From Candidatus Bathyarchaeota archaeon (lineage in GTDB: Archaea; Thermoproteota; Bathyarchaeia; Bathyarchaeales; Bathycorpusculaceae): a DNA stretch of 64,000 nucleotides. The position numbers were made by a program, and so were the translations under genes. The stretch spans positions 1 through 64,000 of the forward strand of contig CAVZKL010000020.1 of the NCBI GenBank assembly GCA_963775895.1, in the 5' to 3' direction. This document shows, in pieces, positions 1,626 through 62,830 of the stretch. The notes under the pieces are model-generated. The model saw only the letters and a program-made list of their open reading frames with translations. It searched no databases and had not been told where the DNA came from. Within the stretch, counting starts at the first letter, position 1, and every line of letters begins with the position of its first letter.

Positions 1626-2090
1626 GTTTCAACATGTGCCTATGGAAAACGTTCTGTGGAAAAGTTGTACCAGAACCGAGATAGACTGTTTTGTTGGGGT
1701 TGGGTTGGGGGAAAAGTTTTATCCCGCGCGCGCAAGCAGAAACATTCGAAGTGGCCACATAACACCAGAGAACCAGAAAGTTCAAATTGTGAAGAGAATT
1801 TTGAGACCTTAAAACAAAAAAGAGTCTTAAATGATTATCCAAGCGTCTGGATTTTGATATAACACTTTGGCATTCCCTTGCCACAGCATGTCCGCCAGTG
1901 CCAGAAATTGTTTGCGTGAAAGCCTTTTCATCATGCCACTCGCCAAAAGCCTTTGTGGCGAATCTTAATATAAACGGCGTTGTTAGGAGGAAAACATGTC
2001 TGAAACGGATATATCAACCCTGTCGCACCTTTTCAGCTGTTGAACAGCTGCCCCAATGCTCTTGGTCATTGAATCGGACACGTGAATGAT

Positions 2091-2774
2091 TCACTGTTGG
2101 CTTGCGCGAGAGCTCTTGTTCTTGCGAAAGGCCAGGAAATGTCTCTTCAATCGCATGGTTAAAGGTATGCCTCTTCCAAACGGTTCACATCTGCCTTTTT
2201 TTATCGCGCTAATTATGTCGTCTGGATTCGCCTTGGCATCGATCGCCGTGTATGCGAACCCTATTTCCGGTGCGTAGTGGGCATCACTTCCGGCGACGCG
2301 GGCGATTGAGAGTTTTGAGGCCAGCTTTTCACTGCGGTTAACAGAGTATCGAAAAGGGATTGCCGACGAGTTGATAACTTCGATGGCATCGAATTTTGAA
2401 CTGACCCGTTGACCCAGACTTCCCCTGTTGCCACCTCCGCTGCCCTTGAAGAGTGAGGATGGATGGCAAGCGATGGCAATTCCCCCTGAATCATGGATTT
2501 TTTCCACTGTCTCTTCAGCTGTCAACCCTCTGGGCACGGCTTTCCCAACGTTGAGTCCAACGATGTGCCCGTCGAGGCTTGAGACTTCCATTCCAGGAAG
2601 GATCAGGAAGTCGATCCTACTACAGATCTTGAGTGCGCTGTCAAGGCAATCGTGATCCGTCACCGCAACGCCATCCAGTCCGCGTTTTCTTCCGTATAGC
2701 GCAAGCTCTTCTGGTTTTATCGTGGAATCTATCGAGCACACGGTGTGGACGTGCAGGTCTATTTTTAGTGGCAA
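2091..2774 (-). CDS. PHP-family metal-dependent phosphoesterase
   Basis: IDLHVHT, VTDHD, GMEVS, ACHP, GSDAH motifs; probable TTG start at 2774. Confidence 0.88.
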   Translation of the reverse strand: MPLKIDLHVHTVCSIDSTIKPEELALYGRKRGLDGVAVTDHDCLDSALKICSRIDFLILPGMEVSSLDGHIVGLNVGKAVPRGLTAEETVEKIHDSGGIAIACHPSSLFKGSGGGNRGSLGQRVSSKFDAIEVINSSAIPFRYSVNRSEKLASKLSIARVAGSDAHYAPEIGFAYTAIDAKANPDDIISAIKKGRCEPFGRGIPLTMRLKRHFLAFRKNKSSRASQQ

Positions 2775-2797
2775 GATTTCAAAGCCTTGACATGATT

Positions 2798-4496
2798 TCA
2801 AACGGTTTTGCTCAGTTTTTCTCTGACCTTTTCGAGTCTTTCTGCCAATTCCTCTGGGCTGTCTTCGATTTTCTTGAACAGAGGCGTAGCTTTCTGAATT
2901 CTGTGGCCAAGGGGCAAAGGCTTCAGTGCTTCGTCCCAGTTCTTTTCTTCCACTTTGCCGGACAAGTTCAGAGTCGTCCATATTTCTTGGGCAGCAAACG
3001 GGATGAACGGTGATGACGTCACTGCGAGAGCTTTGACGAATCGGGTCGCTAATGAAAAAATGCTAGCTGCTTTCTCTTTGTCCTTCTTTATGAGGTTCCA
3101 CGGTTCCTTTTCGTTCAGGTATTGGTTTCCGACGCGACTTACACTTATGATGGTGTTTGCTGCTGATTGAAGCTTACACGCTTCCAGCTCTCTTGCAGCT
3201 ACTTGCACTTTCTCTTCGAGTGTCTTCAAGACTTGAATCGAATCAGAGTCAGAAGGGCTTGTCTGAGGAACGATACCGTCAAACTTTGAATTTACGAAGG
3301 TCAACGTTCTATGGACGAAGTTGCCGAAAGTGTCGTTCAGGTCGGCGTTGATTCGTTCAATGAAAACGTCCCATGAAAAGTTCGAGTCTTTGGTCTCGGG
3401 CCTAGTTGCGATCAGGAAGTACCTCCAGTAATCGGCTGGAAACAGTTCCAAAGCTTCATCCATCCATATCCCCACCTTTTGGCTCTTGGAGGCTTTCAAT
3501 CCTTTAAACTGCAGCCATTCGGTGGCCGACACCTGCCATGGCAGGTTGTAGTTTTCGCCCGAAGCCAGAAGCAGGGCGGGCAAGATTATCGTGTGGAAGG
3601 GGATGTTGTCTTTTCCTATGAAGTAGTACGTCCTAGCTTCTTTATTGAACCAATATTCTTTCCAGCCATCTGGCCTCGCCGCGATTCCTGAAGTACTCGA
3701 TCGTTGCTGAAACGTACCCCAAAACGGCTTCAACCCAAACGTAGATGCTCTTTTTTTCCGCACCTGGAAACGGTGCCTGAATGCCCCAGCTCACGTCACG
3801 GGTTACTGCCCGAGGCTTCAAGCCTTCCTTCACGAAATTTAGGCTAAAATTCCTTGTGCTGCTCGCTAACTGCTGATTGCTGAGAAGGTACTTGGTGATT
3901 TGTTCGGAGAGTTTGGGCAGGTCGAAATACCAGTGTTTGGTCTGTCTTATCACTGGTTTACTCTTGCAGATTGCGCAGTACGGCTCTATCAAAAGCGTCG
4001 TTTCAAGAAGTCTGCCACAGTTCTCGCACTGATCTCCGCGAGCTCGCTCGTAACCGCAGTATGGACATTTTCCTTCAACGTACCTGTCCGGCAGGAACCG
4101 ACTGCATTTTTCGCAGTAGAGCATCTCAGTTTCCTGGGCGAATATGTATCCGCGATCATAGATTTCCATCAACAGTTTCTTGACAAATTCTTTGTGTACC
4201 GGATTCTCAGTCCTCGTGTAGTTATCGAATGAGATCCCCCACGCCTTCAGGAGAGCGACGATCTTGGCATGGTTTCGGTCAGTCATCACCTTTGGCGAAA
4301 CGCCTAACCGCACGGATTCGACCTCAACGGGAGTTCCGTGTTCGTCTGAACCGCTCACCATGACAACGTCTTCACCTTTAAGTCGACTGTATCGTGCAAA
4401 CACGTCCGCAGAAAGAACGGAACCCACCAAGTTGCCAAGATGCGGAAGGCTGTGCACGTACGGCCACGCTGAGGTTACTAGAGTTTTACGTCTCAA
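2798..4496 (-). CDS. metG: Methionine--tRNA ligase (single frameshift near 3675, probably sequencing error)
   Basis: TSAWPY..HLGN (HIGH), Zn knuckles [22 protein letters not shown] (KMSKS). ORFs 3642..4496 and 2798..3763 join. Confidence 0.95.
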
Positions 4497-4913
4497 TACA
4501 TACTCAACATCCGTTAACGTTTCAGTAGAGGATTAGAAGTTCTATTACTTAGATAAAGCGATTGCAAAGAAGCATTAATTTTCAAGCGCCTTATCAATCA
4601 GCTTCAAGTCTTCATGCAGTTGCTTCTGACCCTATCGCAAGCGCGCGAAAGAAGATTAAAAGACGAAAGTTAACGTTTACCTCTTTTTTGATTGTGCGCA
4701 CCATCTCATCCGCGAATGATGGCTCATGAAGAGGCACAAAAAGTTGAAGCAGTTTTGGAGAGACTCGGTTTCAAAATCGACTATAAAGAGTAGTTATTCT
4801 GCGCCTGCTTGTCCTTATCATGGCGTTGAATATATTCTTTAAGGGCTTCCTTTATGACTTGGCTGAGCGCGCGCTTGTACGCATTTCAACTTTCTTTTAG
4901 CGTCTGCAGTTCC

Positions 4914-5084: not shown

Positions 5085-5363
5085 TCACATCATCGCAGAA
5101 CCATTCTGTATCAACCCACTATTTCTGCATGTCGCCAATAGCGCGCGCTACCTCTTGCCTAGTAGCCGTTTTTTTATCCATATCAAGCTATTTTTTATTT
5201 TTTTAAAGATAAAAAATGGATTATGACTCATCATTTTATCTCCTTTATGATTTTTGCCGGAATACCGTTTCTCGGAACCCTTCAACTTCGGAGCGAATAC
5301 GGACTCGTATCTCGCAACGCGCCTAAAAGCCTTGGCGCGCGCTTCTCTCCGCGAGCTTCATTG

Positions 5364-17618: not shown

Positions 17619-18620
17619 ATGTCTGAATTTGGTTCAAGTCACGACTCTCATTCTGACAAAGCTATCGTAGCGGAGCATCTGTGCAAAGTCTTCGACGTTA
17701 CGAAGGGTTTTCTTCGGCGAACAAGAAGCCAGGTTGTCGCAGTCAAGGATCTTTCCTTCGAGGTTGACTATGGCGAACTGTTCGGTGTGATTGGCCCGAA
17801 CGGGGCGGGGAAGACGACGACGATCAAGATGTTGACGACCATGCTCCTGCCCACGTCCGGCAGGGCAATCGTGCTGGGTTATGATTGCCAGAAAGAAGTC
17901 ACCAAGGTCAGAGAGAGAATAGGTATCGTCTTAGGAGGCGAAAGAGGACTTTACACCCGGGTTAGCGCAGTGGAAAATCTCAACTATTTTGCTGACCTTT
18001 ATGGAGTCCCGAAGAGTGTCCGTGATAAGAGAGTGAGAGAACTCTTAGAATTCATGGGGCTTTCAGACAGGGCACACGACCGTGTGGAGACTTTCTCCAA
18101 GGGTATGAAACAGAGGCTGCACCTGGCGCGAGGGTTGATCAACGACCCTGAAATCATCTTTCTAGACGAGCCCACGCTTGGGTTGGATCCCGAGATTTCG
18201 ATAGAAACAAGGCGCATGATCAAGGAACTGGTCGAGAAAGGTAAGACCATCCTGTTGACTACGCACTACATGTTTGAAGCAGACGAGCTCTGCAAAAGGG
18301 TAGCGGTCATCAGAAATGGCGAAATTGTCGCTCTCGACACTCCTTCCGGACTCAAGAAGTACGTGATGGACACGAGCGTCGTGGAAGTTGAAGGCTTCGG
18401 AATTACAGAAAAGGAAGTCGCCAGGTTCAAAGAAATTCCAGACGTCGTGTCAGTGAGCGCTGACTTGGGCGAGAATAAGCAGGTCCTGAAACTTCAGACA
18501 CCCAAGGGTTCCGAAATAATCGCTGAGGTGCAACAAATACTGAAGAACTGCAAAATATACGACATAAAAATAAAGGAACCCACGCTTGAAGACGCTTACC
18601 TGCGACTCGTGGAGGGTTAG
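17619..18620 (+). CDS. ABC-2 exporter ATP-binding protein
   Basis: GPNGAGKTT, FSKGMKQRL, LDEPT, TTHYM, EPTLEDAY. Confidence 0.93.
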   Translation: MSEFGSSHDSHSDKAIVAEHLCKVFDVTKGFLRRTRSQVVAVKDLSFEVDYGELFGVIGPNGAGKTTTIKMLTTMLLPTSGRAIVLGYDCQKEVTKVRERIGIVLGGERGLYTRVSAVENLNYFADLYGVPKSVRDKRVRELLEFMGLSDRAHDRVETFSKGMKQRLHLARGLINDPEIIFLDEPTLGLDPEISIETRRMIKELVEKGKTILLTTHYMFEADELCKRVAVIRNGEIVALDTPSGLKKYVMDTSVVEVEGFGITEKEVARFKEIPDVVSVSADLGENKQVLKLQTPKGSEIIAEVQQILKNCKIYDIKIKEPTLEDAYLRLVEG

Positions 18621-18632
18621 GGGAAGCCGTTA

Positions 18633-19446
18633 ATGCCGCAAACTATGAGAGTCATATACAGCCGCGTTCAGGATGGCCATGCTTCATTGGATGGCAGATC
18701 CGCAGTGGGTCATTCCGAACATCATCGCTCCTTTTGTCTTCACCACGGTAGCTCTAATGCTGTTCAAAGATTCAGCGGGACCATTCGGTTTGTACGCTGT
18801 TTTGGGCGGAGGAATGATGGGCATGTGGGGCAACACCATATACTCTTCGGGCTTTGCCATTGAATTTGAAAAATGGCAGGGGACCCTTGAGGAAGTTATC
18901 GCGGCGCCTGCAAAGCTCATTCACGTGATGACTGGAAGAGCCATTTCAAACGCCCTCTTCGGCCTCACGAACATGCTGGCCGTACTGCTTATCGCCGAAG
19001 CAGTTTTCAGGGTGCCCCTTGGAATAACTGATCCATTGCTTTTCTCGGTGTCATTGATTCTCACGCTCCTTTCAGTTTCAGCCCTTGGATTAATATTCGC
19101 TTCTGCCTTCGTGCTTTCACGTTCCGCTCAAGCTTTGACCAACGGGCTGGAAACTCCACTCTACATCGTGTCGGGTTCGATGTTTCCGATTGCTTTGCTT
19201 CCTTTCTGGATTCATCCAGCGGCCTACGTGTTGGGTCCAACATGGGGAATAGATGCAATCAGGCTGGCCAGTAGCGCCAGCTATGTCTCGCAGAGTTTCT
19301 GGGCGGGCTTTTCCGCGGATTTCGCAATGTTTCTGGACCTGACCGTCATGATCCTGATCACGTTGGCTTACATCCTCGTAGCCTTTGCGCTGTTCAGGAT
19401 TGTGGAGAGAAGAGCCAGAATCACGGGCAGCATGGTGCAAGCATGA
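18633..19446 (+). CDS. ABC-2 permease (frameshift near 18670)
   Basis: EKWQGTLE, SGSMFPI..LP, multiple TM. Confidence 0.85.
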
Positions 19447-20225
19447 AGAACCTGAATGTTTTTCTGAGCAGCGCAGTCTTCTCGTTCCGCGCTCAGTTTG
19501 ACTGGTTGAACCCTTCGATGTGGCTCACCATGAAGATCGTTCTGTCGTTGTCACAGATGGCTTTCTTCGCCTTTGTCGGACTCTTCGCAGGAGCATCAGT
19601 GTCGTTCATAGTGATAGGCAATGCTTTGCAGAGCGTCTCCTGGAACACGGTTTTCTCGGTCATCAACATAACGGGACACGACAAGTGGGACGGGACCTTG
19701 CCGCTCGTACTGGCGACTCCTGCCAACAGGCTGCCACTTTTCATAGGCAGAGCGATGATCCACGTGTTCGACGGCATACTGAGCGCAGCAATCTCCTTCT
19801 TCTTTGCAGCCTTCATATTCGGCGTAGACTTCGGGCAATCAAACGTGCCAGCACTGGTTCTAACTGTGCTTCTAACGGCATTCACGATGGCTGGTTTCGG
19901 ACTTCTCATCGGAGGCCTATCGTTCTTCTTCAGAAACCCAATGGTATTCGCCAACATTTTCACCTTTGTGCTTCTCATTTTCTGCGGCGTAAACTTTCCA
20001 GTGGAAAACCTGCCTCTGACAATTCAACCGTTTTCGTACGTGTTTCCACTCACCTACGGCGTCACCGCGGCAAGAAACGCCATCGCCGGAGCGAACTTGA
20101 TTCAAATCGGGCCGACTCTTGCCCTGCAATTAGCCGTCGGATTGGTCGCAATGGGCATAGGGTTTCTCTTCTTCAGATCTTTCGAAAATAGTGCAAGAAA
20201 AACAGGGAAAATAGAAGCTGTGTGA
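19443..20225 (+). CDS. ABC-2 permease
   Basis: DKWDGTLP..LATP, CGVNFPVENLP, PLTYG. Confidence 0.88.
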   Translation: MKNLNVFLSSAVFSFRAQFDWLNPSMWLTMKIVLSLSQMAFFAFVGLFAGASVSFIVIGNALQSVSWNTVFSVINITGHDKWDGTLPLVLATPANRLPLFIGRAMIHVFDGILSAAISFFFAAFIFGVDFGQSNVPALVLTVLLTAFTMAGFGLLIGGLSFFFRNPMVFANIFTFVLLIFCGVNFPVENLPLTIQPFSYVFPLTYGVTAARNAIAGANLIQIGPTLALQLAVGLVAMGIGFLFFRSFENSARKTGKIEAV

Positions 20226-20438
20226 ACCAAGACCCTGCAGGCCAATTTCTTCTGAGGAAGATACTCAAATTGCGTTAGGTATTGATTTTTGAAAACTTTT
20301 GTTGTAACCAATGTTGTTGGTGTATTCATTGATTTCTGAGGTGTTGTTGTTTCTGCGCGCGCGGAACTAGCGATGTGTTAGCGAGCGTCAAAAACTTATA
20401 AATAGAATATCAAATAATTCCAAGGAGAGGCAATCAAA

Positions 20439-20651: not shown

Positions 20652-20675
20652 AAACCAAACACGCGCGTGCAATAC

Positions 20676-20975
20676 CTAGTCGCTCGGCTTCACAGTACGA
20701 GTGATAATGTACATGAAGATGCCAAGAACAACCAGTCCCAATCCCCCATAGAGTATAAAGCGGCTTAATGCAAACATATCGAATCCAAATGTGCGTTCGT
20801 ACCCCGCGAGTTCGTGCGGCGATAAAATGTTCGAGACGATAAGGCCGAAAAAAACCCCTACCAAAGCGATGATTATTCCAATCCCGATCAGCGTAAAGAC
20901 ATTCTTCTGGAACCCCATTCTCCAGTCTCTACTCAACTTCTGGCTTGTATTCATCGAATCTACCGCCAACTCCAC
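20676..20975 (-). CDS. Small 2-TM membrane protein
   Basis: Two hydrophobic helices; start uncertain. Confidence 0.6.
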   Translation of the reverse strand: MELAVDSMNTSQKLSRDWRMGFQKNVFTLIGIGIIIALVGVFFGLIVSNILSPHELAGYERTFGFDMFALSRFILYGGLGLVVLGIFMYIITRTVKPSD

Positions 20976-21088
20976 TCTGTTACATCCTTAACTCGGTTGG
21001 GAATCAGCAAGACGCGCGCGCCAATGTTGTTGGTGTGTTGGTTTTAGATTATGTTTGTGTTTGCGCGCGTGTTTTAGGTTCTTATCAC

Positions 21089-21490: not shown

Positions 21491-23834
21491 AGGCTAGGTA
21501 TGCGCGCGCACTCAGGTAGTGGACGTTGTGAATGCTCCTCTGAGCCTTCAAGACGGCTTCTGAAACCGAACCCAATGACGTTTCTTCCTCCTTGATTGTC
21601 CCGCCAGAAACCTCGTAGTACAACCCGTCAGTTATCGAGGCTATCATCTGCGTCGTGATCATGCTGGGGTTCGCCATTGATCTGGGCGAGTTTGGCAGCG
21701 TGTTGACGACAACCGTGTAGATGTTCTCTTTTCTCATGAGCTCCGAAACTGAAAGCACGTCCTTTATTGCTTCATCCTCAACCTTGAAGAAAGCTGCTGA
21801 AAGAGGGTCGAACTGACGGATGTCGCCCGTCTGCAGATCGCGTTTCAAAGGAACGTTAGCGTCTCCGTCCGTGATTATGACCATCACGGGTATGGTTGAA
21901 AAGTCTCGCCGCTTGGATTCTCTGAGAACCTCCAACGCTTTCTCCATTCCTGCGGCCAACGGCGTGTACCCGCTCATTCGCAGTCTCAGAAGTTTGTTGG
22001 CGACCAACTTCAAGTTCGTTGTGGGATGCTGAACTACAACCGCACCCATCTCCTTGAAGGCTACTATTCCGACCTTGTCGCGGCAACGGTATGCGTCAGA
22101 GTGCAGCTTCAACATGACCTCTTTGATTTCATCAAGACTGCATAGCATCGATTCACTTAGGTCCAAGACGAAAGTTATCGTCATCGGGGCCATGCCGATT
22201 CTGGTTTTTTCTCTCACGTCTTCCTTACGCAGCGTAAGGGCCAAGCCTTCTGTTTGGTCTCTAAATCTCTGTTTTCTTGCTGCAGCACGTATCGTTGCGG
22301 GAAAATGAATGTCAGAAGGTCTGTCGGACGGTATTTTCCACCCGTTCGTTCTTCCGCGATGAGTCGCCGTTACTGCCTCGGCTCGCTTACCGACGTTTGG
22401 CGCAGGCTGCTTCGGGGATTTCTTCGTTTTGAAAAGAAACTTCAAGTTGGGAATCTTGCTCTCTCGAATTCTATCTATGAAACGCTTGCCCCGGTTCACT
22501 TTAGGTTCGGACCATTTGGCGTCCGGGGGCAGAGCCGCGCTCGAACCTCCTTTTTCAGGTTCTGAGTCCAGAGGGATACTGCCCTTCCTTACGTCGCTGT
22601 CACGTAACAAAAAATCGTCAGAATCAGGCTCCCCGATCTTCGCTTTGGCGATCTCTTTCTCTTTTTGCGTTAGCCTCCTCAGTCCGAACGGAGGCAGAAT
22701 CTTCCTTTTCTCTTCCTTCTGATCGGGCTCGGCTTTCTTCGTTTTACTCTTGATTTCTTCCACTGTGCGGGTGCTCGCACTCTCCGAGCCCTTTGCTTCC
22801 TGGAGCTTCTTGATGAAGGAGTCTCTTATCTCCTGGGGAGTGACTGGCTCCAGAAAACCGTTCTCCCTAGTTCGATGGGTCAGGGCGAGTTCAGCAGCTT
22901 TGAGGACGTGGTCAGCAGTGGTTTCGGTCTTGTTTTCGAAGGCCGCCAACGTCTTGGCGGTCTTGGTGATGACAATGTCTGGACGCATGCCGTCGACCTT
23001 CAACTCCAGACACGCCTCGCAGACCACTTTGATCAGTTTGTCATCGATATGGACTTTTTCGAGTATTTTTCTTGCCAGTAATATTCTTTCTCTCAGCTCT
23101 CCTTCCTGAGAATCGTACTTTTTGACAAAATTCTCGGGGTTTGCTTCAAACTCTATGTTTCTCTTGACAACCTCAATTCGGTCTTCCGCGTCGGAAATTC
23201 TCTGAAGCTCAACAGACAGAGGCAGGCGATCCAAGAGTTGTGGTCTTAGCTGTCCTTCTTCAGGGTTCATGGTTCCGATGAAGACGAAGCGTGAGGGGTG
23301 TTTTACCGAAATTCCCTCGCGTTCAACGACGTTCCAGCCCGTCGCGGCGGCATCCAGCAGATCATCCGCAATGTGATCTGGAAGCAGATTGACCTCGTCG
23401 ACATAGAGGATGTTTTGATTCGCGTCGGCAAGTATGCCTGGTTCAAGCGCCTCGACACCCAACTTTATGGCCTTCTCCACGTCCAGAGTGCCAACGACTC
23501 TGTCCTCGGTTGCTCCCAACGGGAGTTCGACAACTCTCATCTTTCTTTCTTCAAACGTCGGGGGCCCATTCTTCGCGTACTGCGCCGTGCATTTTTCACA
23601 CATGTTTGAAGGATCATCGGGCCTGCAGTGGAACGGACAATCCCGCACGATTCTTATCGTCGGTAAGACGCGGACCAACGCTCTGACCGCGGTCGTCTTT
23701 CCAGAGCCTTTCGGCCCGCGGATGAGCAGGCCGCCGATTTTCGGGTTGACGGCGTTGAGAATCAGAGCCAGCTTCAGATCTTCCAAGTCGACGATAGCAG
23801 TGAATGGATAAGTCACCTGTTCCTGCATTGGCAT
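21465..23834 (-). CDS. Mg/Co-chelatase ChlI/ChlD-like AAA+ ATPase with C-terminal vWA domain
   Basis: YPFTAIV, GPKGSGKTT, ATEDRVVG, YVDEVNLL, MNPEEG.LRPQLLDR; vWA DLSESM, TPLAAG, ITDG. Confidence 0.9.
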   Translation of the reverse strand: MPMQEQVTYPFTAIVDLEDLKLALILNAVNPKIGGLLIRGPKGSGKTTAVRALVRVLPTIRIVRDCPFHCRPDDPSNMCEKCTAQYAKNGPPTFEERKMRVVELPLGATEDRVVGTLDVEKAIKLGVEALEPGILADANQNILYVDEVNLLPDHIADDLLDAAATGWNVVEREGISVKHPSRFVFIGTMNPEEGQLRPQLLDRLPLSVELQRISDAEDRIEVVKRNIEFEANPENFVKKYDSQEGELRERILLARKILEKVHIDDKLIKVVCEACLELKVDGMRPDIVITKTAKTLAAFENKTETTADHVLKAAELALTHRTRENGFLEPVTPQEIRDSFIKKLQEAKGSESASTRTVEEIKSKTKKAEPDQKEEKRKILPPFGLRRLTQKEKEIAKAKIGEPDSDDFLLRDSDVRKGSIPLDSEPEKGGSSAALPPDAKWSEPKVNRGKRFIDRIRESKIPNLKFLFKTKKSPKQPAPNVGKRAEAVTATHRGRTNGWKIPSDRPSDIHFPATIRAAARKQRFRDQTEGLALTLRKEDVREKTRIGMAPMTITFVLDLSESMLCSLDEIKEVMLKLHSDAYRCRDKVGIVAFKEMGAVVVQHPTTNLKLVANKLLRLRMSGYTPLAAGMEKALEVLRESKRRDFSTIPVMVIITDGDANVPLKRDLQTGDIRQFDPLSAAFFKVEDEAIKDVLSVSELMRKENIYTVVVNTLPNSPRSMANPSMITTQMIASITDGLYYEVSGGTIKEEETSLGSVSEAVLKAQRSIHNVHYLSARAYLAYGSRARSG

Positions 23835-24313: not shown

Positions 24314-24820
24314 CTCGCGCGCGCGCTTCGATTCTTTCCAGCCATCATCAGCACGATGATGATCGCGATCAACCCGAGACCTAGGGTTAAGGCTATGGAC
24401 GCAACTGCCCAGAGAGGCATCTCTAAACCGTTCTGCACAGGTACTGATTGATCGGTTATAGGCGTGGACCAACCGTTCCATCCGCCCGAGAGCCACGTTA
24501 CGTCAGAGGGCCCGACGACATCGTTTATCGCAGTCAGGTTGTACACGTTGTCTTCGACCTTTGAAACCGTGAATCTCCTAGAGCCCTGTGTGCTGAAAGA
24601 GTAGGATTTTTCCCATCGATCATTCTGAGCCGACCACTCCATGGCTTCGTTGGAAGTTGCCAATTGCCAGCCTCGACTGCTCTGGTTGACCACGTGAGTA
24701 TCTAAGAACAACGTGTCGTTCGGTCCCTTGAGCAGCATGTTATCGTACTCGTAGATCGCTATGAACCAGACTTGTTCGCTGCTTCCAACTGGTGCCGTCT
24801 GCTGAAATGTTCCATCACAA
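24307..24820 (-). pseudogene. 5'-truncated paralog of the C-terminus of the 26600..29998 surface protein
   Basis: VGSSEQVWF..YEYDN..WEKSYSFSTQGSRRFTVSKVED..MPLWAVASIALTL vs VGSTEIVWF..YAYDN..WEESYSFSSQGSRNFAVSKVDD..MPSWAIVSIALTL; no signal peptide. Confidence 0.8.
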
Positions 24821-25004
24821 TGCGACTACCAATTCTGTCTTGGACAACTCCCTCCTTTTTTGAGTTCAAAACCGTCGCGCGCGCTTCAGAGGTGCATGCG
24901 GCGTTAGAGAACGTACCATTCTCTAGAACACGATGTACCAAAGCATAGGATTAAATCCCAAAGTATGTCCTCTGTAGTACAACTGGAAAGAAATTCTAAA
25001 CTAG

Positions 25005-26336
25005 GTGAAAACAATAATGAAGAAACTATTCACGTTGACCTTGCTTGGACTGTTGTTTACTTCCCTGTGTTTCACATCACTTTTCCAGTCAGGATCCCGT
25101 TCTGTGAACGCGTCGTCCACCTTGACTTCTGATGCCGCAGAATATGCAGACGGCACTATTACTATTCCGGACTCCTATAGCCTTATTCGATACAGCTGGA
25201 TCAACGTTTCTGGCACGCAGGTTATCAACTACGTTCTGTACGCCAACTCTGACTACCCCTCACCGTTTGTCAGTCTTGTGGGACAGTTCTTCCAGTTAGC
25301 CGACGGAACAAAGGTTTCTGTAATAAGCGCGTTGGACAAGATGGAAGTCTACAACGACACCAACGGCGACGGTATTCCAGAGGCAAACTTCACTTCTGGG
25401 CAGAGCGAAATCCTGTACTACGCCTTCGTAAACATGAGTGACAGCTACAGCATTAACCCCATCGAGAAAGTGACCGAAAACAACGTTTCCCACTACAAGT
25501 GGGGTTTCACGTACGTAAACGCCTCCGCGTTCCTCCTAAACGCCTCGGTCAACTACGACCTCGTGGCCAAGTTGATCTTCGATCACATAACTCTAGGCTA
25601 CGATTTCAGCGTTCAAAACAACGTCTCCTCCCTGAAGACCAACTTTGACATCGGAAAAGTCGCGAACATTACTGTTCTCGATTCTTCACAGCTTTCGCTG
25701 AACGGGTTGAGTCTGGCTCTGCTCTATCCCACGTGCACCCACACGTCGAAACCGTATTCAACGTATGTCGGTGGTCAGCAGTTCAACTCGACGATCTCGA
25801 ATGAGACTGCCATAAACTTGCCACTTGCAGAAGTTGTGGTCGGGACTATGAAAGCGTATGATTTTGTGTTCGGCGGAAACTACACCCTGATCAGAGGCCA
25901 AAGCAATGAGACCTACGCGTTGAAGAGCGAAGCCGCGTCGCTATCTAGCGTTCCAACCGACGTATATGGACCAGTCTTATGGCAGGAAAGCTTTTTCAAG
26001 GATAACCTGAACCTCGGCGACCTATTCGGAGGCTCACCGCCAGACATTTCAGTTGACTACAACGAGTCATCGCTGATCTACAGGATCTGTTTTCCAGTCT
26101 GGGACGGGATGGAGGTTCAAAACGACCCGGTTTACATGGGCTACTTGTTCAGCGATGTGGTGTTTCCCGAGATTTCTTCGCCGATAATCCTAGTACTGCT
26201 GGTAATGGTCACGACATCACTGGCTCTTGTATTAACGAAGAAGCGACAGAAAGCACGCTCGTGCTCCAACTCACAAAAACTCAGAACGACAATTCAGACC
26301 ATGGAAGGAACGGCAAAACAAACAACCTTCACTTAA
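25005..26336 (+). CDS. Secreted or surface protein with C-terminal PE-TM-basic anchor
   Basis: Signal peptide, YNDTNGDG motif, many N-x-S/T sequons, VFPE-TM-KKRQK. Confidence 0.8.
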   Translation: MKTIMKKLFTLTLLGLLFTSLCFTSLFQSGSRSVNASSTLTSDAAEYADGTITIPDSYSLIRYSWINVSGTQVINYVLYANSDYPSPFVSLVGQFFQLADGTKVSVISALDKMEVYNDTNGDGIPEANFTSGQSEILYYAFVNMSDSYSINPIEKVTENNVSHYKWGFTYVNASAFLLNASVNYDLVAKLIFDHITLGYDFSVQNNVSSLKTNFDIGKVANITVLDSSQLSLNGLSLALLYPTCTHTSKPYSTYVGGQQFNSTISNETAINLPLAEVVVGTMKAYDFVFGGNYTLIRGQSNETYALKSEAASLSSVPTDVYGPVLWQESFFKDNLNLGDLFGGSPPDISVDYNESSLIYRICFPVWDGMEVQNDPVYMGYLFSDVVFPEISSPIILVLLVMVTTSLALVLTKKRQKARSCSNSQKLRTTIQTMEGTAKQTTFT

Positions 26337-26599
26337 CCTTAATGCCCCTTCAGTACCACTAATAAATCTAATGTCCCATTCTGATGGCAATCCTGCAAAC
26401 AATACCCTGAAAAAGAAAGCGTGCGCGTCTTTCATGCAGGATGTTTGCTCGCAATTCTGCACCGAAAAAATCTGTTATACCTAATTGGAAATAACTAGTT
26501 TGCGCGCGCGCTTCCAAGCAAGCCCTTGACTCGTGGCACAGAACATTGTTCTAGAAAAATATTTCGAAACTCTTAACTTCAAGCATCACCGTATGAGAA

Positions 26600-31058: not shown

Positions 31059-31091
31059 CGCGCGCTACAAAGAGGCACAAAGATGCGGTAG

Positions 31092-37534: not shown

Positions 37535-37771
37535 TTTCCTTCACACCTCCTGACCCCTTCTTCACGCAGTTGACTTGTAACACAAAATGCGAATAATAGA
37601 TTTGTGGAAGTAAGTTCTATAAGCACAAGATCTTTCATTTGAAACGAGCTTAAACATTCACGTGTAAGTCTAATGTGTGCACATTCTTATCGATTGTGGA
37701 AAAACATTTGAGCGCGCGCTAAGGTGATTTTTTCTGAATTTTAGATTTTTTTTCGACACTTCACAATTAGC

Positions 37772-38404
37772 TCATAGCGCGCGCGATTTTGTTTGTATTT
37801 CTCGGCGTGTAACTAGATGCCAACTAAATCCAGCGAGCCACATGAGCGCTGGGTAGACGATCATATGTTCCATCCCACCAGGGCCTAAACCCATGTAGAA
37901 ATCGCTGTCATACGCAATGTCACTGGTTAATGAGCCGCTTGTGATCATACCACTTGAGAAGAGAACTAATGCTCCAAGCGTCATCGTCCCTAGTATTATG
38001 CTCATCAGAGATGATGGCATTTTCAGCACTTTAAGTGATGATATGGCTGACAACCCAGCGAAAAAGAAAGTCATTGTAGTCACCGCACCGTGAGCGGTTC
38101 TATAATCTTTAGTGAAGACGCCGACACCCATTGCTCCTAAGGCCGATAGGAAGAGCAGCATGTTAACGGTTTTGAAGTCAGAGACGGTCCTTAGACAGTA
38201 CGTTCCAATGAGTAATAATAGTCCTAGAAGAAAGGCAGATGAGTTGAAAATTATAGAGGATGGTCCGATTCCAAGGTCGCTTATGTAATTGGCAGACACG
38301 CTGTAGCCAGGATACAACGCCTCTGAAATGCTAAGACCTAGGACGAACTGTGTGGCTGCGATAAAGAAGAGCAATCCCGCCACTTTTTCTCTTGAAAATG
38401 CCAT
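37772..38404 (-). CDS. DUF998 family membrane protein
   Basis: YPGYSVSANYISDLG, FN, GVGVF, H, G.GGME. Confidence 0.85.
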   Translation of the reverse strand: MAFSREKVAGLLFFIAATQFVLGLSISEALYPGYSVSANYISDLGIGPSSIIFNSSAFLLGLLLLIGTYCLRTVSDFKTVNMLLFLSALGAMGVGVFTKDYRTAHGAVTTMTFFFAGLSAISSLKVLKMPSSLMSIILGTMTLGALVLFSSGMITSGSLTSDIAYDSDFYMGLGPGGMEHMIVYPALMWLAGFSWHLVTRREIQTKSRAL

Positions 38405-38898: not shown

Positions 38899-39301
38899 TA
38901 GGATCAAGATTGTCGTGGTAGCGCGCGTTTGCTTGGAAAATATAATTAGTCTATCGCGATTTTGTAAACGTGTTTATTCCGTGTCTATTAGGGGTTTATT
39001 GTACGTATGTATCATCAAAAATAGTGGCAAAAACACTCAAAAAACGCGGTTTTTCCGCATTATTTGACTAATTTTCTTGATTATTCTCCTTATTTTCAGG
39101 AAATCTTTGACTTGTTTTTCTTGTTTGCCTAGGCGGAAAACAATTCTGGGCGAAGGTTTCTCTCGCTTAAACGACACTCGCAACGTAGAACATCCTTTAA
39201 TGCATTGCATCAGAAACCATTTGTTTAATCCTTTATCGTGAGACTGGAGAGCAACCCATGCAACTACACACATGTTTTCAGACCAAGACACCGCGCGCGT
39301 T

Positions 39302-40600: not shown

Positions 40601-40718
40601 AAAAAGCGCGCGCTCTAATGACCGTGAAAAGTAGCACGATATATGCCAATATTAATTCAAAAAGGTTATATTGAGCCACAACCACTCTGGGGTATTTGCG
40701 GGTGTAATGTGATGCAAG

Positions 40719-43782: not shown

Positions 43783-44499
43783 TCATGGAGGCGCAGGCTG
43801 CTGAGTTGTAGGCGGCGATGTTTGCGGCAACGATTGAACTGGTCGAGCCCTTCTTCTCCGCAAGATGACGATCACAGTCGCGAGCGTGACGATGACAACA
43901 GCCGCTGTGATGATTATCAGCCACTCAGAGTTCAAGCTAAACAAGCCTGTGCTCCACAGGTTTGTGTCCGTCAGCACGATTTCAAATGCGCCATTGCCGG
44001 TCGCGTTGTTCTGGAAGGAGCCTGTGGCTTCAAGAAACACTCCCGTTTGCTGATCCCAGTAGACCTTGGAAGAGATACCCAAGTAGGGCACGCGCGCGTC
44101 CGCCACTATAGCTTTTCTTCCGTTCCATTCTGTCACATTCTGAACTGTCACGCTTTCACTCGGAATAGTGTCTCCAAGTGCAAGGTTTGCAGGAATGATG
44201 ACCCCCGTCAGGAAACTGCCACCTCGCGTTGCAATGTCCATCTCGAACTGCGATGCTGGAATCATGTCTTGTCCTTGAACGCTGACCTCGTACGTTCCAG
44301 TTATGGTTGAACCCTGAACGGTCTGGATGTCAATCTCAAGGATTCCTGTTTCGTTTACCTGTTGAGTCGAAGTTGTTATGTTATACTTAATCCAATCACC
44401 GCTATTCACGCCTACCGCGTATTGGGCGCGTGCGAGATTTGTCTGAAGAGAAACGCAAAGAGCTAGGATTATCCACAAAGGAAGTTTGCTTCTTGCCAA
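43783..44499 (-). CDS. Secreted or membrane-anchored hypothetical protein
   Basis: Signal peptide, VGVNSGDWIKY, YWDQQTGVFLE, C-terminal TM + RRRR + Pro-rich tail. Confidence 0.8.
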   Translation of the reverse strand: MARSKLPLWIILALCVSLQTNLARAQYAVGVNSGDWIKYNITTSTQQVNETGILEIDIQTVQGSTITGTYEVSVQGQDMIPASQFEMDIATRGGSFLTGVIIPANLALGDTIPSESVTVQNVTEWNGRKAIVADARVPYLGISSKVYWDQQTGVFLEATGSFQNNATGNGAFEIVLTDTNLWSTGLFSLNSEWLIIITAAVVIVTLATVIVILRRRRARPVQSLPQTSPPTTQQPAPP

Positions 44500-58617: not shown

Positions 58618-58629
58618 CGGCGGGTCCGC

Positions 58630-58947: not shown

Positions 58948-58986
58948 GGAATTTTCCTTGCCGACCACTCTGTCATTCTCAAAACC

Positions 58987-59496: not shown

Positions 59497-59579
59497 CACC
59501 AACGATTCTTCAGTGTTGCCAATAGCGCGCGTACGCAACGCGGTTTTACGAAGGCATGGCTCCCTTGAAGCACTTGTTC

Positions 59580-59960: not shown

Positions 59961-60045
59961 TTTGCATCAAATCCCCAAAAGATAATCATATATACAAGTA
60001 GGACTATAGCGTATAAATGTTGCTGGTTATGGACTATAAACAAAT

Positions 60046-60663: not shown

Positions 60664-60858
60664 CGCGCTAATCCAACTTTTGAGTTTCGGGACATAATTG
60701 GAGGGTATGCCATCAAGTGCAACATCAGATTCATGCGCAACATCACGGAACTGATTTGTTCAAAAAACGAAAATAGCGCGCGCGTGTTGTAGCTGGGCAA
60801 ACTCTTAATTGTTGGTTAAGTCTAATTAAGCCTTAAGTAATAATGTGGGTGATTTTCT

Positions 60859-61242: not shown

Positions 61243-61286
61243 TAGTAGTGCGTTTTACGTTTCGCGCGCCTGAATCAAGCAATTTT

Positions 61287-61961
61287 ACCGGTAGCGCGCG
61301 CAGGAACCCAATACTCTTATTTACAAAAACGCAATGATTCTGACAGTAAGAGCTGGAGAATGATTCTATGGGGTGGACAATGAGTTCCGTGGGAGGCGTC
61401 GCGGTGATATCTCTTTACTTTGTTTTCACGTTCTCCTCATTGGCACTTTATCCTAAAGCTTACAGTCCAGTAACTAACTGGTTAAGCGATTTAGGCAGCT
61501 CGTCGAACAATCCAAGAGGTGCAATTCTTTACAACCTAGGCTGCATTCTGACAGGAATAGCATTGTTCCCGTTTTTCATAGGGTTGTACAAGTGGTACAC
61601 AGAAGAGAAGTGGCGAAGAATAGTTCTCATGGCCACGCAGGCTGTTGGGTGCCTAGCGGCTTTGGCGCTGGTCATGATCGGCGTCTTCTCAGAAGACGCT
61701 GGTTCGCTTCACACTTTGTGGTCGAGCGTTTTCTTCCTATTCAACCTTATCGTGCTTATTCTGGTAGGAGTAAGCCTATTCACCCATACGAGCTACATGA
61801 AAGCCATCGGGGTCTACGGATTCATCGTGGCTGCGATAAATCTTTTGTTCATTCTTCTGTATGACACGCCACTTTTCGAATGGTTCACAGTTTTCACAGC
61901 TTTGGGATACGTTGGACTGCTAGCTAAGAGCACGCTCAAGAGATAAACCGGTAGTGCGCGC
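61287..61961. repeat. 15-bp direct repeats ACCGGTAGYGCGCGC bracketing one gene
   Basis: 61287-61301 and 61947-61961 (1 mismatch); the second begins right after the stop codon. Confidence 0.75.
61368..61946 (+). CDS. DUF998 family membrane protein
   Basis: YP..YSP..NWLSDLG..NPRGA, IGVFSE..LH, FEW. Confidence 0.85.
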   Translation: MGWTMSSVGGVAVISLYFVFTFSSLALYPKAYSPVTNWLSDLGSSSNNPRGAILYNLGCILTGIALFPFFIGLYKWYTEEKWRRIVLMATQAVGCLAALALVMIGVFSEDAGSLHTLWSSVFFLFNLIVLILVGVSLFTHTSYMKAIGVYGFIVAAINLLFILLYDTPLFEWFTVFTALGYVGLLAKSTLKR

Positions 61962-62364
61962 TAATTCAGAGTCCTCAGAATCTATAATTTCTATATCAAA
62001 ATCTGGCACTTATGCCATTTCGCGCGCTATCACTTTCTCCTATTCTTTCTCACCAATCTTCGCAAAAGCCGAATATCGCCGTGAATCATGACGTCTTCAA
62101 ACCTGTCGCGCGCGCGGTAAACACGTTCTAGAGAAGTAATCTTGATGGGAAAAAGGAAATTGCGGAGCTGGAGACGCCTACTACGCTCCACGAGCGCGCT
62201 AACTTCCCCAAACCAAAACTGATGACGATGCTATGCTTGAGAAAAAGAACAAAGGCAGTATACAGGATTCATGTAGCAGGAGGAAGCAGGAAGAGCGTCC
62301 ACGATAAATGCTCGAAAAAAACAGTTATCTTACTTCAGGATACCTTACTGTTGTTGTGGTAACG

Positions 62365-62808
62365 TTGTCGGCTTTAAAGAAGATTGAAATCAAGCCTATA
62401 GGTTTTGTTAAACGAACATCATCTGATGAGAATGTCTGAGACAAAAGCCTTGTTTCGAAGATAATGCTCAAGAAAGATCTTGCCAAAGCTCTGGACGGCG
62501 TTGAGGAGTTTTCCCACGTTTTTATTATCTATTGGATGCACAAAATATCAAACACTAAAAGAAGATCAGTTCATAGTGAAGGTAGAGCAGAGATGCCACC
62601 TGTAGGGGTTTTCGCATGCAGGGGCCCAATTCGTCCGAACCCTATCGGTTTGACTTTGGTGGAGCTTGTTAAACGTGAAGAAAATGTTCTTTGGGTAAGA
62701 GGTCTTGACGCTCTTGATAAGACCCCGGTTCTGGACATCAAGCCGTATGGCCGTTCGTGTGACATTGCAGTGAATTTCAGAGTTCCCAAACGGTTCTGCG
62801 AAAAATAG
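62365..62808 (+). pseudogene. trmO: TrmO/TsaA tRNA m6t6A37 methyltransferase with an in-frame TGA at 62437
   Basis: IKPIGFV upstream of the stop; FSHV..IYWMH, GVFACRGP.RPNPIGL, GLDALDKTPVLDIKPY. Confidence 0.8.
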
Positions 62809-62830
62809 CAGGCAAAAGCGCGTGCGTAGG

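Follow-up and report, generated by a model that had tools for sequence, protein, structure and literature searches.

Alternating C/G runs and structural-variant junctions in the genome of a wetland Bathyarchaeia archaeon

The stretch of DNA analysed here (64 kb, hereinafter the window) carries short alternating C/G runs between many of its genes, which raises the question of what these runs are and whether they mark the points at which genes are gained and lost. A first inspection of the letters (the sequence-only reading) had interpreted them as a short palindrome acting as the junction for gene gain and loss, possibly delimiting cassettes, or as a chromatin or insulator site.

Number, unit and position of the runs

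A recount of the window yielded 37 maximal alternating C/G runs of at least 6 nt, 19 of which are at least 8 nt long and begin exactly where they had been listed by the sequence-only reading (1725, 4867, 5141, 5335, 20355, 21013, 21502, 24316, 24876, 26502, 31058, 37712, 37777, 39292, 40606, 44091, 60776, 61294 and 62107). All of the 14 copies of 6-7 nt reported there were recovered as well, together with four additional 6-nt runs (123, 14461, 49417 and 57500), and the palindrome TAGCGCGCGCTA was found again at 5139 and 31056. The block described as devoid of runs is indeed so: no run of at least 8 nt falls in 5343-20354, nor within ileS (40719-43358).

The window belongs to the 1.77-Mb genome of an uncultured wetland archaeon of the Bathyarchaeia (G000, 88.8% complete), whose most frequent 8-mer is GCGCGCGC, with 254 sites versus the 18-21 expected from whole-genome Markov models of order 0-3; the same models give about 0.7 sites per window. 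The enrichment was also computed by compartment, as had been proposed, the coding/intergenic split and the spacer classes being defined by our own simple gene caller, and GCGCGCGC exceeds expectation in both intergenic (197 versus 3.2, order 1) and coding DNA (47 versus 17.3). Its density in the window is twice the genome average (19 versus 9.5 per 64 kb). A run lies within 70 nt of seven out of the 56 contig ends of G000, and six of those runs are at least 8 nt long, about 0.6 being expected. In a survey of 401 Bathyarchaeia genomes, the 12-mer occurs at least nine times in 17 genomes from five families, i.e., it recurs patchily, while a control word occurs at most three times in every one of them.

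The lengths of the runs point to a fixed unit. Maximal 8-mers are GCGCGCGC in 126 cases and CGCGCGCG in 29, and the runs of 8, 9 and 10 nt (126/79/11) fit the numbers expected for a (GC)4 unit with random intergenic neighbours (129.7/75.3/10.9, chi-square p = 0.87). The unit often has A or T as neighbours, no consensus exists beyond position -1 across 516 flanks, and neither a T-tract nor a longer consensus was found to flank the runs. One-mismatch variants of the unit number 266 versus 54 expected, with transitions 7.4 times over expectation, and this halo of variants indicates that runs decay by point mutation.

Genome-wide, 205 of the 263 runs of at least 8 nt are intergenic (78%), 47 are coding and 11 straddle a gene border; in the window, according to our gene calls, 15 of 19 are intergenic and the remaining four fall in ORF ends or in unannotated ORFs. 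Their density per kb is 1.62 in convergent spacers, 0.65-0.67 in tandem ones and 0.36 in divergent ones, so that runs are biased toward the 3' sides of genes, and few are found in the 30 nt ahead of a start codon.

Junctions and conservation in relatives and populations

The comparison of the window with the metagenome contigs L083 and L079 revealed three clusters of junctions, every one of them located at runs. A plus-strand segment of an ABC-2 transporter operon, with an ATPase and two permeases (17703..20380), is missing from the close relative L083, where the ATPase gene breaks off after 84 nt and a 9-nt run follows at the junction; in the window, the run GCGCGCGCG (20355..20363) lies 24 nt inward of the right edge of this 2.7-kb indel. 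A single-ORF segment on the minus strand (20671..21012, ORF 20676-20975) is flanked on one edge by a 6-nt run (20662..20667) and on the opposite one by CGCGCGCGC (21013..21021), and L083 homology stops at 21013; in its place L083 has about 83 unrelated nt, which are in turn flanked by degenerate runs. Finally, the 11-nt run 24316..24326 occupies the place of about 150 nt found in L079. Hence, in a relative 91-98% identical, breakpoints of presence/absence and of replacement fall in runs or a few bases away from them, as the proposed alignment with relatives was meant to reveal. At the right edge of the ABC-2 indel itself there is a degenerate run.

Independent Logan contigs from four public metagenome studies (X1, X4, X5 and X7) document further junctions between 24 and 32 kb. 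A 2.2-kb segment (24327..26501), harboring a minus-strand ORF (24307-24738) and a plus-strand gene of 443 aa (25005-26336), with the run CGCGCGCGC (24876..24884) separating the two, is lost between the 11-nt run at its left and the 10-nt run 26502..26511 at its right. The joint is 24316>26502 in X4 and X7 and 24315>26503 in X1 and X5, and 9-13 letters at the joint match both sides. The two bounding runs have 13 nt in common, forming a direct repeat that reaches 3 nt past the run, and a target duplication made by an insertion would also fit. Since X1 holds both the joint and a contig of the segment itself, the two alleles coexist in that study, in part of which the run at 24316 is 2 nt shorter. 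Where a given gene ends varies from strain to strain, each time at a junction that bears a run, with loose ends at 26292 and 26415 in addition to the joint at 26502. In one X1 contig, the minus-strand segment 31057..32329, containing the gene 31092-32231, is replaced, 1273 nt being swapped for 580 other letters, and the left breakpoint is the palindrome TAGCGCGCGCTA (31056..31067). Of the nine genes described as individually bracketed by runs, the two checked directly (20676-20975 and 25005-26336) are so. The relative and the four-study contigs directly support the proposed junction for gene gain and loss, whereas a dedicated cassette signal as in integrons is not supported.

In comparisons between relatives, to be regarded as kin rather than as independent samples, a run of at least 8 nt was present within 10 nt, in either genome, at 22 of 105 alignment ends, and 83 had none. 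Among 46 gaps, one allele was 17 nt or shorter in 18; a run or a one-mismatch run is located at the shorter-allele join in five of these (gaps #12, 17, 18, 26 and 33) and nine have no run at all. The longer alleles of the five are ordinary sequence, neither MITE nor IS. Both breakpoints of gap #33 fall within well-scored genes of the longer allele, the final 48 nt of the lost gene persist in gap #26, and some deletions ending in or beside runs truncate genes. Gene fragments abut 3 of 209 runs genome-wide versus 44 of 800 positions of a noisy control, so most runs are not visibly beside truncated genes. The runs mark structural-variant junctions.

The runs are not conserved elements; they sit in, or edge, unshared DNA. 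Between the sister species G001 and G008 (about 91% identical), none of the seven runs in aligned blocks is identical in the partner, two of the seven being at block edges and not comparable. The density of intergenic runs in unaligned spacers is 10-18 times that in aligned ones: G008:C2 has three in 29.1 kb of aligned spacer versus 41 in 22.2 kb of unaligned, and G001 has four versus 33. Coding DNA that aligns (166 and 162 kb) contains no run, versus eight and ten in the unaligned. Moreover, among spacers of at least 100 bp, a run occurs in 1/45 of those whose flanking genes are adjacent in both G000 and G001 versus 102/416 of the others (p = 1.2e-4), an avoidance that adds genome-wide support to the junction interpretation.

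Origin of the runs

On balance, we lean towards the view that GCGCGCGC represents (GC)4 linkers or scars left at junctions when DNA is rejoined in the flexible genome, which then become recombination hot spots, rather than a conserved signal. Its occurrence at points of loss, swap and insertion suggests that DNA is cut and rejoined in a manner for which no description was found. An activity borne by the lineage might write or ligate a (GC)4 linker onto broken ends, any two of which can pair because (GC)4 is self-complementary. Existing runs would then offer 8-13 bp of microhomology at which segments could later be deleted, inverted or swapped. The centre of the unit may be a target of IS5-type insertion sequences, with a 4-bp duplication that would turn the 8-mer into 6 + 6. 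Selection would purge the junctions that harm genes or promoters, and survivors would consequently accumulate immediately behind stop codons and where the spacer is convergent. A few polarised cases (gaps #33 and #26, and the junction in L083) suggest that runs are written de novo; the other cases can be read both ways, as a deletion plus a run or as an insertion into a run.

As regards the enzyme that might write the unit, each candidate family tested was absent or uncorrelated, and the search for a matching methylase, RAYT, reverse transcriptase, protelomerase or PrimPol/PolX brought up none. Like the filler DNA or N/P nucleotides added at end-joining junctions (Ku/LigD NHEJ, eukaryotic TdT and Pol theta repair), the runs at deletion joins are extra letters unexplained by either parental flank, and G000 carries a complete operon for Ku, LigD-PolDom, ligase and phosphoesterase. 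However, known end-joining fillers vary in sequence and length or are copied from nearby DNA, while a single fixed word is found here. The Ku/PolDom module is absent from the run-rich G024 and G030 and present in the run-poor G016 and G040, and PolDom is absent from five out of five run-rich genomes of other lineages, so that Ku-LigD is neither necessary nor sufficient as the writer. Fragile sites made of Z-DNA or other non-B (CG)n tracts share the alternating CG and the fact that deletions or rearrangements stop at the tract on one side; they account for loss beside an existing tract, not for a new tract at a join nor for a fixed length of 8.

It is unlikely that the runs derive from cut-and-paste transposons (elements of the IS5 family and their MITEs, with GCGCGC termini), either as transposon ends or as footprints of excision, a solo run being the remnant of an excision or of a deletion between two terminal copies. 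Suitable elements do exist: a MITE of about 205 nt with GCGCGC borders, beyond which TA often follows, is found at least 11 times in 800 kb of G001 and four times in G008:C2; a 1.08-kb IS5-family element (DUF772 and DDE_Tnp_1) with the same borders is intact in G004 and G009; and the transposase is present in the five most run-rich genomes of the genus. Nevertheless, G000, with all its sites, has no DDE_Tnp_1, no match to the transposase protein and no MITE copy (blastn); G024 and G030 have no match to that protein either, DDE_Tnp_1 is also missing from the run-rich single-contig genome G117 and from G324, and IS630-type transposases occur in none of ten same-genus genomes nor in G000. GCGCGC lies on both borders of IS5-type elements differing in their inner inverted repeats, and a border common to IS types whose inner repeats are unrelated is better explained by a duplicated target than by a terminus belonging to the element; these elements appear to insert into the (GC)4 unit. 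The five run-bearing short alleles, all of which face ordinary sequence, also argue against transposon footprints.

It is similarly improbable that the runs are core sites of an integron-like cassette system, whose site-specific recombinase would act at (GC)n. The run-cassette-run layout, the single ORFs bracketed by runs and the exact run-to-run loss of the 2.2-kb segment in four studies would suit it, and a palindromic core would permit both deletion and inversion, the arrangement in L079 looking like an inversion. As in integrons, single-gene segments are parted by a recurring palindrome, and presence/absence breakpoints fall in the element. Yet the boundaries of one gene shift between strains, cassettes lie on both strands, and scanning 30 ORFs of the window brought up no integrase or recombinase beside the array, which disfavours the dedicated cassette signal of the sequence-only reading. 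Furthermore, some deletions have one end inside a gene, with no run there, and runs are present at plain deletions and at joins whose other allele has none. An integron attC is a structured site of tens of bases, and to our knowledge recombinase sites are far longer than the 8-bp unit seen here.

A selected function at gene 3' ends (terminators, insulators, chromatin or protein-binding sites, Z-DNA supercoiling sinks) seems quite improbable. It would explain the strong 3'-side and convergent-spacer bias and the scarcity of runs just before start codons, and a protein binding as a dimer would be well served by an exact 8-bp palindrome. Against it stand the fact that none of the seven aligned runs is retained at about 91% identity, the poverty of aligned spacers, the near-absence of runs between genes that stay adjacent, and decayed copies as numerous as the perfect ones; in addition, the motif is absent from most sister genera. 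Since individual sites are not conserved and no flanking T-tract or longer consensus exists, the chromatin or insulator option, like a terminator, is unlikely. REP/BIME elements with their RAYT resemble the runs in being extragenic and lineage-specific, with a 3'/convergent bias, and in serving as IS insertion targets and join-points of rearrangements. REPs, however, span 20-40 nt, are imperfectly palindromic, follow a family consensus and are linked to a Y1 transposase, while the unit described here is 8 nt long with no further consensus, and PF01797 was found in none of five run-rich genomes, G000 included.

Very little speaks for a bias like that of HIP1 (GCGATCGC), methyltransferase-linked or due to mismatch repair, that would convert near-matches everywhere while selection clears genes. 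The likeness lies in a perfect, GC-rich palindrome of 8 bp, lineage-specific and the most over-represented octamer of its genome, as in cyanobacteria. HIP1 is frequent within genes too, whereas 78% of the runs are intergenic, unconserved and located at indel edges, not in alignable DNA. PF00145 (C5 methylase) is absent from G000 and from eight of ten same-genus genomes, and PF01555 (N4/N6) has one weak match in G000, apparently housekeeping, in an ORF common to most relatives, run-poor ones included; the search for a cognate methyltransferase proposed earlier thus found no matching one in G000, although such a gene may be missed, as the assembly is incomplete. One-mismatch variants, including the T-bearing C>T forms, are enriched seven times rather than depleted, and the proposed analogy does not extend to the mechanism. 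According to the abstract of PMC6604393, the CGATCG core within HIP1 is methylated. G000 shows no enrichment of HIP1 itself (28 sites versus 22-28 expected).

The artefact of assembly or polishing that the sequence-only reading had contemplated is hardly credible: although the splitting of essential genes of G000 (ileS, leuS and the LigD ligase) into two ORFs suggests some indel errors, the independent contigs of the four studies cover the runs or join at them, and runs are also found in L079, L083 and dozens of genomes from other projects.

Other runs of the window

The run CGCGCGCGC at 1725..1733 is located in a spacer that has genes without a match in G001 on its left (up to 1625) and, from 1827 on, the first block syntenic with G001 on its right. 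The window-specific stretch 3764-6052, which breaks synteny with G001, contains GCGCGCGC at 4867..4874 and the 12-nt palindrome at 5139..5150 (run 5141-5148); GCGCGCGC at 5335..5342 is 21 nt off the end of the ORF 5364-5777. A further GCGCGCGC (21502..21509) falls 37 nt within the 3' end of a chelatase-like gene (21465-23834), and another one (37712..37719) is in the spacer preceding 37772, while GCGCGCGCG at 37777..37785 is 2 nt from the stop codon of the minus-strand ORF 37772-38422. An intergenic spacer holds CGCGCGCG at 39292..39299.

GCGCGCGC at 40606..40613 lies 5 nt past the ORF 40421-40600 and 105 nt ahead of ileS, at the edge of the G001-syntenic ileS block. CGCGCGCG at 44091..44098, embedded in the ORF 43783-44499 (no Pfam family), lies at the start of a 19-kb stretch missing from G001. 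GCGCGCGCG (60776..60784) is upstream of the ORF 60859-61242, GCGCGCGC (61294..61301) separates it from the ORF 61368-61946, and CGCGCGCGCG (62107..62116), downstream of the latter, is near the right end of the 19-kb stretch.

The (GC)4 palindrome and its distribution

The window holds 37 maximal alternating C/G runs (hereinafter, runs) of at least 6 nt, 19 of which are at least 8 nt long. All 19 had been counted in the sequence-only reading and lie where it placed them; its 6-7-nt copies are likewise all present (14/14), even though four additional 6-nt runs had been overlooked, and the palindrome TAGCGCGCGCTA does occur at both 5139 and 31056. The genome of origin, G000 (1.77 Mb in 28 contigs, 47.7% G+C, 88.8% complete), whose contig C20 begins with the window, contains a total of 263 runs of at least 8 nt. 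Its most frequent 8-mer is the (GC)4 palindrome GCGCGCGC, with 254 copies vs. the 18-21 expected under Markov models of order 0-3; the count of the HIP1 octamer GCGATCGC equals expectation.

The genes of G000 were called with a home-made dicodon caller (2168 genes, 83.8% coding), according to which 205 of the 263 runs are intergenic, 47 are coding and 11 lie across a gene end. The palindrome GCGCGCGC occurs 197 times in intergenic DNA, where 3.2 copies are expected (order 1), and 47 times in coding DNA, where 17.3 are expected. The excess persists after correction for composition, so the absence of enrichment contemplated in the sequence-only reading is not what is found. Convergent spacers carry 1.62 runs per kb, tandem spacers 0.65-0.67 and divergent ones 0.36. 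In tandem spacers, the runs lie at a median of 69 nt past the upstream stop codon, and 90% of them are at least 38 nt before the next start. Stop codons are touched by 24 runs; in 19 of these 24 the stop is TAG and the run begins with its G.

The position immediately preceding the run is occupied by A in 58% and by T in 27% of the 516 flanks analyzed, and no consensus exists past this position, so the run does not form the centre of a longer repeat. A longer MITE or REP element around the run was therefore rejected, just a minority of the runs sharing flanks with another one. The maximal 8-mers are asymmetric in register (GCGCGCGC 126 vs. CGCGCGCG 29), and the classes of 8, 9 and 10 nt (126/79/11) correspond to those expected for a fixed (GC)4 with random intergenic neighbours (129.7/75.3/10.9; p = 0.87). 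(GC)5 represents a minor class, and there is a sharp cut-off at 10-11 nt; this pattern of length and register is unlike that of a slipping microsatellite. Inner one-mismatch variants of (GC)4 are also in excess in the intergenic DNA of G000 (266 vs. 54 expected), transitions reaching 7.4 times and transversions 3.6 times the expectation, a pattern resembling a halo of copies in decay.

The palindrome was found in all the 10 other genomes of the same genus (29-464 sites each). In the other genera of the order, 26 of 30 genomes have at most 14 sites; the exceptions are G024 (227), G030 (53), G019 (30) and G039 (19), and both G024 and G030 harbor the same kind of run despite a G+C content of just 40-43%. 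Across the class, the 12-mer palindrome was detected in 56 of 401 genomes, MAGs being incomplete and prone to losing repeats; 17 of the 401, belonging to five families (f1, f26, f27, f31 and f37), contain it at least nine times, and a control word never exceeds three copies per genome. Hence, the trait is patchy and recurrent across the class. The presence of aNOP56 and Trm1 in the window identifies the organism as an archaeon, and its IleS places it in the Bathyarchaeia, the best relatives (83-85% identical) coming from MAGs of this class recovered in peat, soil and groundwater.

Runs at the joins of variable DNA

The closed chromosome G001 and the contig G008:C2, from sister species, are collinear at ~91% identity. 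Their aligned blocks contain just seven runs of at least 8 nt, none of which recurs unchanged in the partner: two are at block edges, and the other five show 1-3 substitutions or an indel. Although 57% of the intergenic DNA of G008:C2 is aligned, only 3 of its 44 intergenic runs are located there (4 of 37 in G001), so that the density of intergenic runs is 10-18-fold higher in unaligned DNA; aligned coding DNA contains no run. Spacers of at least 100 bp whose flanking genes are orthologous and adjacent in both G000 and G001 bear a run in 1 case out of 45 vs. 102 out of 416 for the others (p = 1.2e-4; 800 kb of G001 against the whole G000, the effect having first been seen on 400 kb), in a comparison among genomes that are kin of one another. 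None of the 19 longer runs of the window falls within a gene block syntenic with G001, such blocks covering 22.8% of its length (p = 0.007).

Alignment ends of G008:C2 and G001, which are good to ~10 nt, have a run of at least 8 nt within 10 nt in either genome in 22 of 105 cases, whereas ~6 would be expected at intergenic density. The alignment contains 46 gaps of at least 60 nt, and in 18 of them one allele is no longer than 17 nt. In 5 of these 18 (gaps #12, #17, #18, #26 and #33), the join in the short allele is marked by a run, perfect or with one mismatch, the longer allele being ordinary sequence in all five; in four others the inserted segment has a run at one end (#23, #41, #44) or inside (#32). 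The remaining nine have no run, and several of them show ordinary direct repeats. In #24 and #25 homology stops within a run, and further gaps are replaced segments with a run at their start or end.

Polarity can be read in two gaps. In #33 both breakpoints fall within well-scored G008 genes, and 1645 nt are replaced in G001 by a 7-nt run with three further letters; in #26, all but the final 48 nt of the gene downstream of ileS has been lost from G001, where an 8-mer is completed by four letters. In both gaps, the allele with the run is the derived one, a deletion. A recognisable truncated gene was found beside 3 of 209 runs, vs. 69 of 800 control positions (44 of 800 minus read-through), the control consisting mostly of weak domain-level matches, so that the comparison lends no support to gene remnants abutting runs; noisy as this control is, the figure suggests that gene-truncating deletions are a minority of the joins. 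The majority of the joins are in non-coding DNA, as selection would yield too. A 13-kb insertion of G001 with respect to G008 (G001:C1:382072-395208) is bounded by an imperfect direct repeat (~12 nt), has runs 6 and 30 nt in from its ends and includes an IS5-family element (389080-390159).

The window itself was compared with two metagenome contigs (L079 and L083, from one metagenome scan) of a 91-98% identical relative. The ABC-2 transporter operon at 17703-20380 is absent from the relative, in which the ATPase gene stops after 84 nt and gives way to a 9-nt run at the junction. On the window side, one run lies 24 nt inward of the right edge of this segment and a degenerate one at the edge itself; the left edge falls within the ATPase gene, with no run. 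The segment 20671-21012, with the ORF 20676-20975, is replaced in the relative by ~83 unrelated nt; runs mark its borders in the window, and degenerate ones mark those of the replacement. At 24316, where the window has an 11-nt run, the relative has ~150 nt, and its own run is 24 nt off, at the switch to the inverted 27087-30042 region.

The stretch 17001-27000 was detected in 20 metagenome runs from 10 studies of wetland, freshwater sediment and peat. Logan contigs from four of these data sets (X1, X4, X5 and X7, one per study) were mapped to positions 14001-33000, where only the contig-covered parts count as evidence; such contigs attest presence, not absence. Position 24316 is joined directly to 26502 in X4 (a 2568-nt contig, ~99% identical on either side) and in X7, and 24315 to 26503 in X1 and X5, with 9-13 letters matching both sides. 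The runs at 24316 and 26502 have thus been fused into one, with the loss of the intervening 2.2 kb and of its 443-aa gene (25005-26336); X1 also includes a contig of the 2.2-kb segment and thus holds the two forms side by side. At another joint, 31057-32329 is exchanged for 580 other letters, beginning at the 12-mer palindrome. Contigs departing from the window at 26292 and 26415 enter directly a degenerate and a perfect run; therefore, the boundary of the 443-aa gene differs by contig (26292, 26415 or 26502), each being a run-bearing join. The length of the run at 24316 also varies among contigs. The 13-nt direct repeat at 24316 and 26502 extends 3 nt past the run and, since TTC follows just 4% of run ends, a target duplication on insertion is a possible alternative origin of this segment. 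The 443-aa gene was also considered as a mobile cassette, which was rejected: its relatives in G009 (four places) and G005 are near runs, in no constant cassette.

On the whole, the suggestion of the sequence-only reading that the palindrome acts as a junction for gene gain and loss is borne out by population joints, indel ends and synteny avoidance. Seven of the 56 contig ends of G000 have a run within 70 nt, six of these being of at least 8 nt (~0.6 expected), which fits an assembly breaking at polymorphic joins.

Other variable stretches were observed in the window. Contigs of X1, X4 and X5 skip 74 nt at 16043-16116 (indel 16042/16117), an indel devoid of any run. The region 43783-62808, 19 kb beside a tRNA-Ala (45468-45543), is missing in G001, in which the genes on either side adjoin each other. 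Its accessory genes, unrelated to one another, encode Schlafen AlbA_2 and HD proteins, a dienelactone hydrolase, DUF362, Lrp/AsnC regulators and a 907-aa beta-helix protein; the ORFs scanned there include no integrase. Two secreted-looking parallel beta-helix (NosD-like) repeat proteins, of 1132 and 907 aa, are encoded in variable regions at 26600-29998 and 54209-56932.

Mobile elements, end joining and other known systems

One rival explanation, considered unlikely, is that the runs are footprints of a transposon. Sister species harbor a MITE of ~205 nt, of which at least 11 copies lie in 800 kb of G001, as well as a 1.08-kb IS5-family element (DUF772 plus DDE_Tnp_1), both with GCGCGC on the two borders and often TA outside. 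The same GCGCGC border, but with unrelated inner inverted repeats, is found on a second IS type and on IS5-type copies of the distant run-rich genomes G123 and G320; other IS types of these two genomes are devoid of it, as are relatives in run-poor genera. No duplication was seen beyond the GCGCGC border. It is known that the IS5 group makes a 4-bp target duplication; insertion in the middle of (GC)4 would therefore turn the 8 nt into 6 + 6, and the use of (GC)4 as a target by IS5-type elements would be the simplest reading of these borders. The sole empty site at hand (#44) has no run. At one site (G001 430253-430805, G008:C2 171611-171852), the two species carry MITEs of different types, each next to the same GCGCGC; it has been struck or exchanged twice.

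These elements and MITEs cannot, however, be the source of the runs, since G000, although run-rich, has no DDE_Tnp_1 (PF01609), no transposase match and no MITE, and PF01609 is also absent from the run-rich G117 (a single contig) and G324. A search with the IS5-family transposase was positive for 6 of the 10 same-genus genomes and negative for G000, G024 and G030. Moreover, in the five gaps whose short allele bears the run, the filled allele is not an element. An IS630/Tc1-type origin, prompted by the TA flanks, was discarded because PF13358 is present in none of the 10 same-genus genomes nor in G000.

Filler DNA added during non-homologous end joining (NHEJ) was also considered. G000 possesses a complete NHEJ operon (G000:C22:27397-30452) encoding a LigD primase-polymerase, Ku, and an ATP-dependent ligase with a 3'-phosphoesterase. 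In a sample of 41 genomes, Ku was found in G000, in 7 of 10 same-genus genomes and in 2 of 30 others, and PolDom in G000 and in 8 of 10 same-genus genomes; PolDom is absent from the five run-rich genomes of other lineages (0/5). The module and run-richness do not co-distribute: it is present in the run-poor G016 and G040 and missing from the run-rich G024 and G030. Ku/LigD is therefore neither necessary nor sufficient, and was rejected as the writer. Archaeal NHEJ of the Ku/LigD type is known from Methanocella; the complete operon is rare in archaea and, in our sample, nearly limited to this genus, the NHEJ polymerase gene being broken in G001 and G005. P-nucleotides left by hairpin opening would fit #26 and #17 but fail for #33, #18 and two junctions of the window.

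The properties of HIP1, REP, integrons and filler DNA used for comparison are general knowledge. G000 resembles HIP1-bearing genomes in having an octameric palindrome many-fold over-represented genome-wide (254 vs. ~20). It differs in the apparent lack of a cognate orphan methyltransferase: no match to the C5 methylase domain PF00145 was obtained in G000 (88.8% complete; 2 of 10 same-genus genomes are positive), and the one match to PF01555 (N4/N6 methylase) is weak, apparently housekeeping and common to most relatives, run-poor ones included. The proposed link between the palindrome and a methyltransferase thus found no support. In addition, deamination-type one-step variants are in excess (inner transitions, 7.4 times in intergenic DNA), which is the opposite of the depletion caused by a HIP1-type or very-short-patch repair drive.

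Unlike integrons, the 30 window ORFs scanned contain no recombinase domain, hence no integrase, and cassette boundaries are not fixed (26292, 26415 or 26502 for the 443-aa gene). REP/BIME sequences differ in that no RAYT (PF01797; Y1, IS200/IS605-like) was matched in five genomes (G000, G001, G117, G386 and G125) and the 516 flanks, unconserved past position -1, reveal no family consensus of an imperfect 20-40-nt palindrome. A protelomerase target is disfavoured, the ResT/TelK catalytic domain (PF16684) being absent from five genomes (0/5), and an intrinsic terminator by the lack of T enrichment past +1/+2 of the run. Searches for other writers returned no reverse transcriptase (telomerase-like) in 41 genomes, and no Prim-Pol or PolX palm in five.

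Possible scars or linkers

The evidence favours runs being scars or linkers, as well as microhomology hot spots, over a signal dedicated to cassettes, because boundaries vary, deletions have only one end at a pre-existing run, runs are present at joins for which the other allele has none, runs are not conserved and no recombinase was found. As a tentative idea, to which we assign a lower probability than its negation, an activity that writes DNA or joins ends might be spreading horizontally in some Bathyarchaeia, using a fixed linker, the self-complementary (GC)4, to seal breaks and to capture foreign fragments. The process would resemble a natural linker ligation. Since any linker would pair with any other, segments could be lost, inverted, swapped or inserted at any of them, making the accessory genome modular, and insertion sequences would home to the linkers.

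If this were true, it would represent a mode of genome plasticity outside the transposon, integron and methylation-linked palindrome kinds, in which a fixed 8-bp word is deposited at DNA joins and later reused as a joining point. It would account for the assembly of the flexible genome from gene-sized pieces in a globally abundant, uncultured group of sediments and wetlands. The runs, where contigs break, would be a simple sequence marker of recent structural change in metagenome-assembled genomes, and they would point to an enzyme of possible use in DNA assembly. As the trait is scattered across at least five families, the responsible gene should be findable by phyletic profiling. A literature search retrieved nothing on this motif in archaea.

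Some peculiarities of G000 concern the structure of single loci. In the window, ileS (40719-43764) consists of two overlapping ORFs (879 + 142 aa), vs. a single frame of 1017-1022 aa in five relatives, and leuS and the LigD ligase are split similarly (3190-6106 and 7397-8792 in the local coordinates of L145, an excerpt of contig C22 in which the NHEJ operon spans 7397-10452); either an assembly indel error or true frameshifts may be responsible. On the same contig, the segment G000:C22:3899-5218, at first resembling a 1.3-kb IS with perfect inverted repeats, is instead part of a large inverted duplication (2273-6886, excerpt L121), where two facing ZIP transporter genes surround two inverted fragments of a cation-ATPase C-terminus. 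This may be either a genuine palindromic rearrangement or a contig-end artefact, and runs lie at mirrored positions within it.
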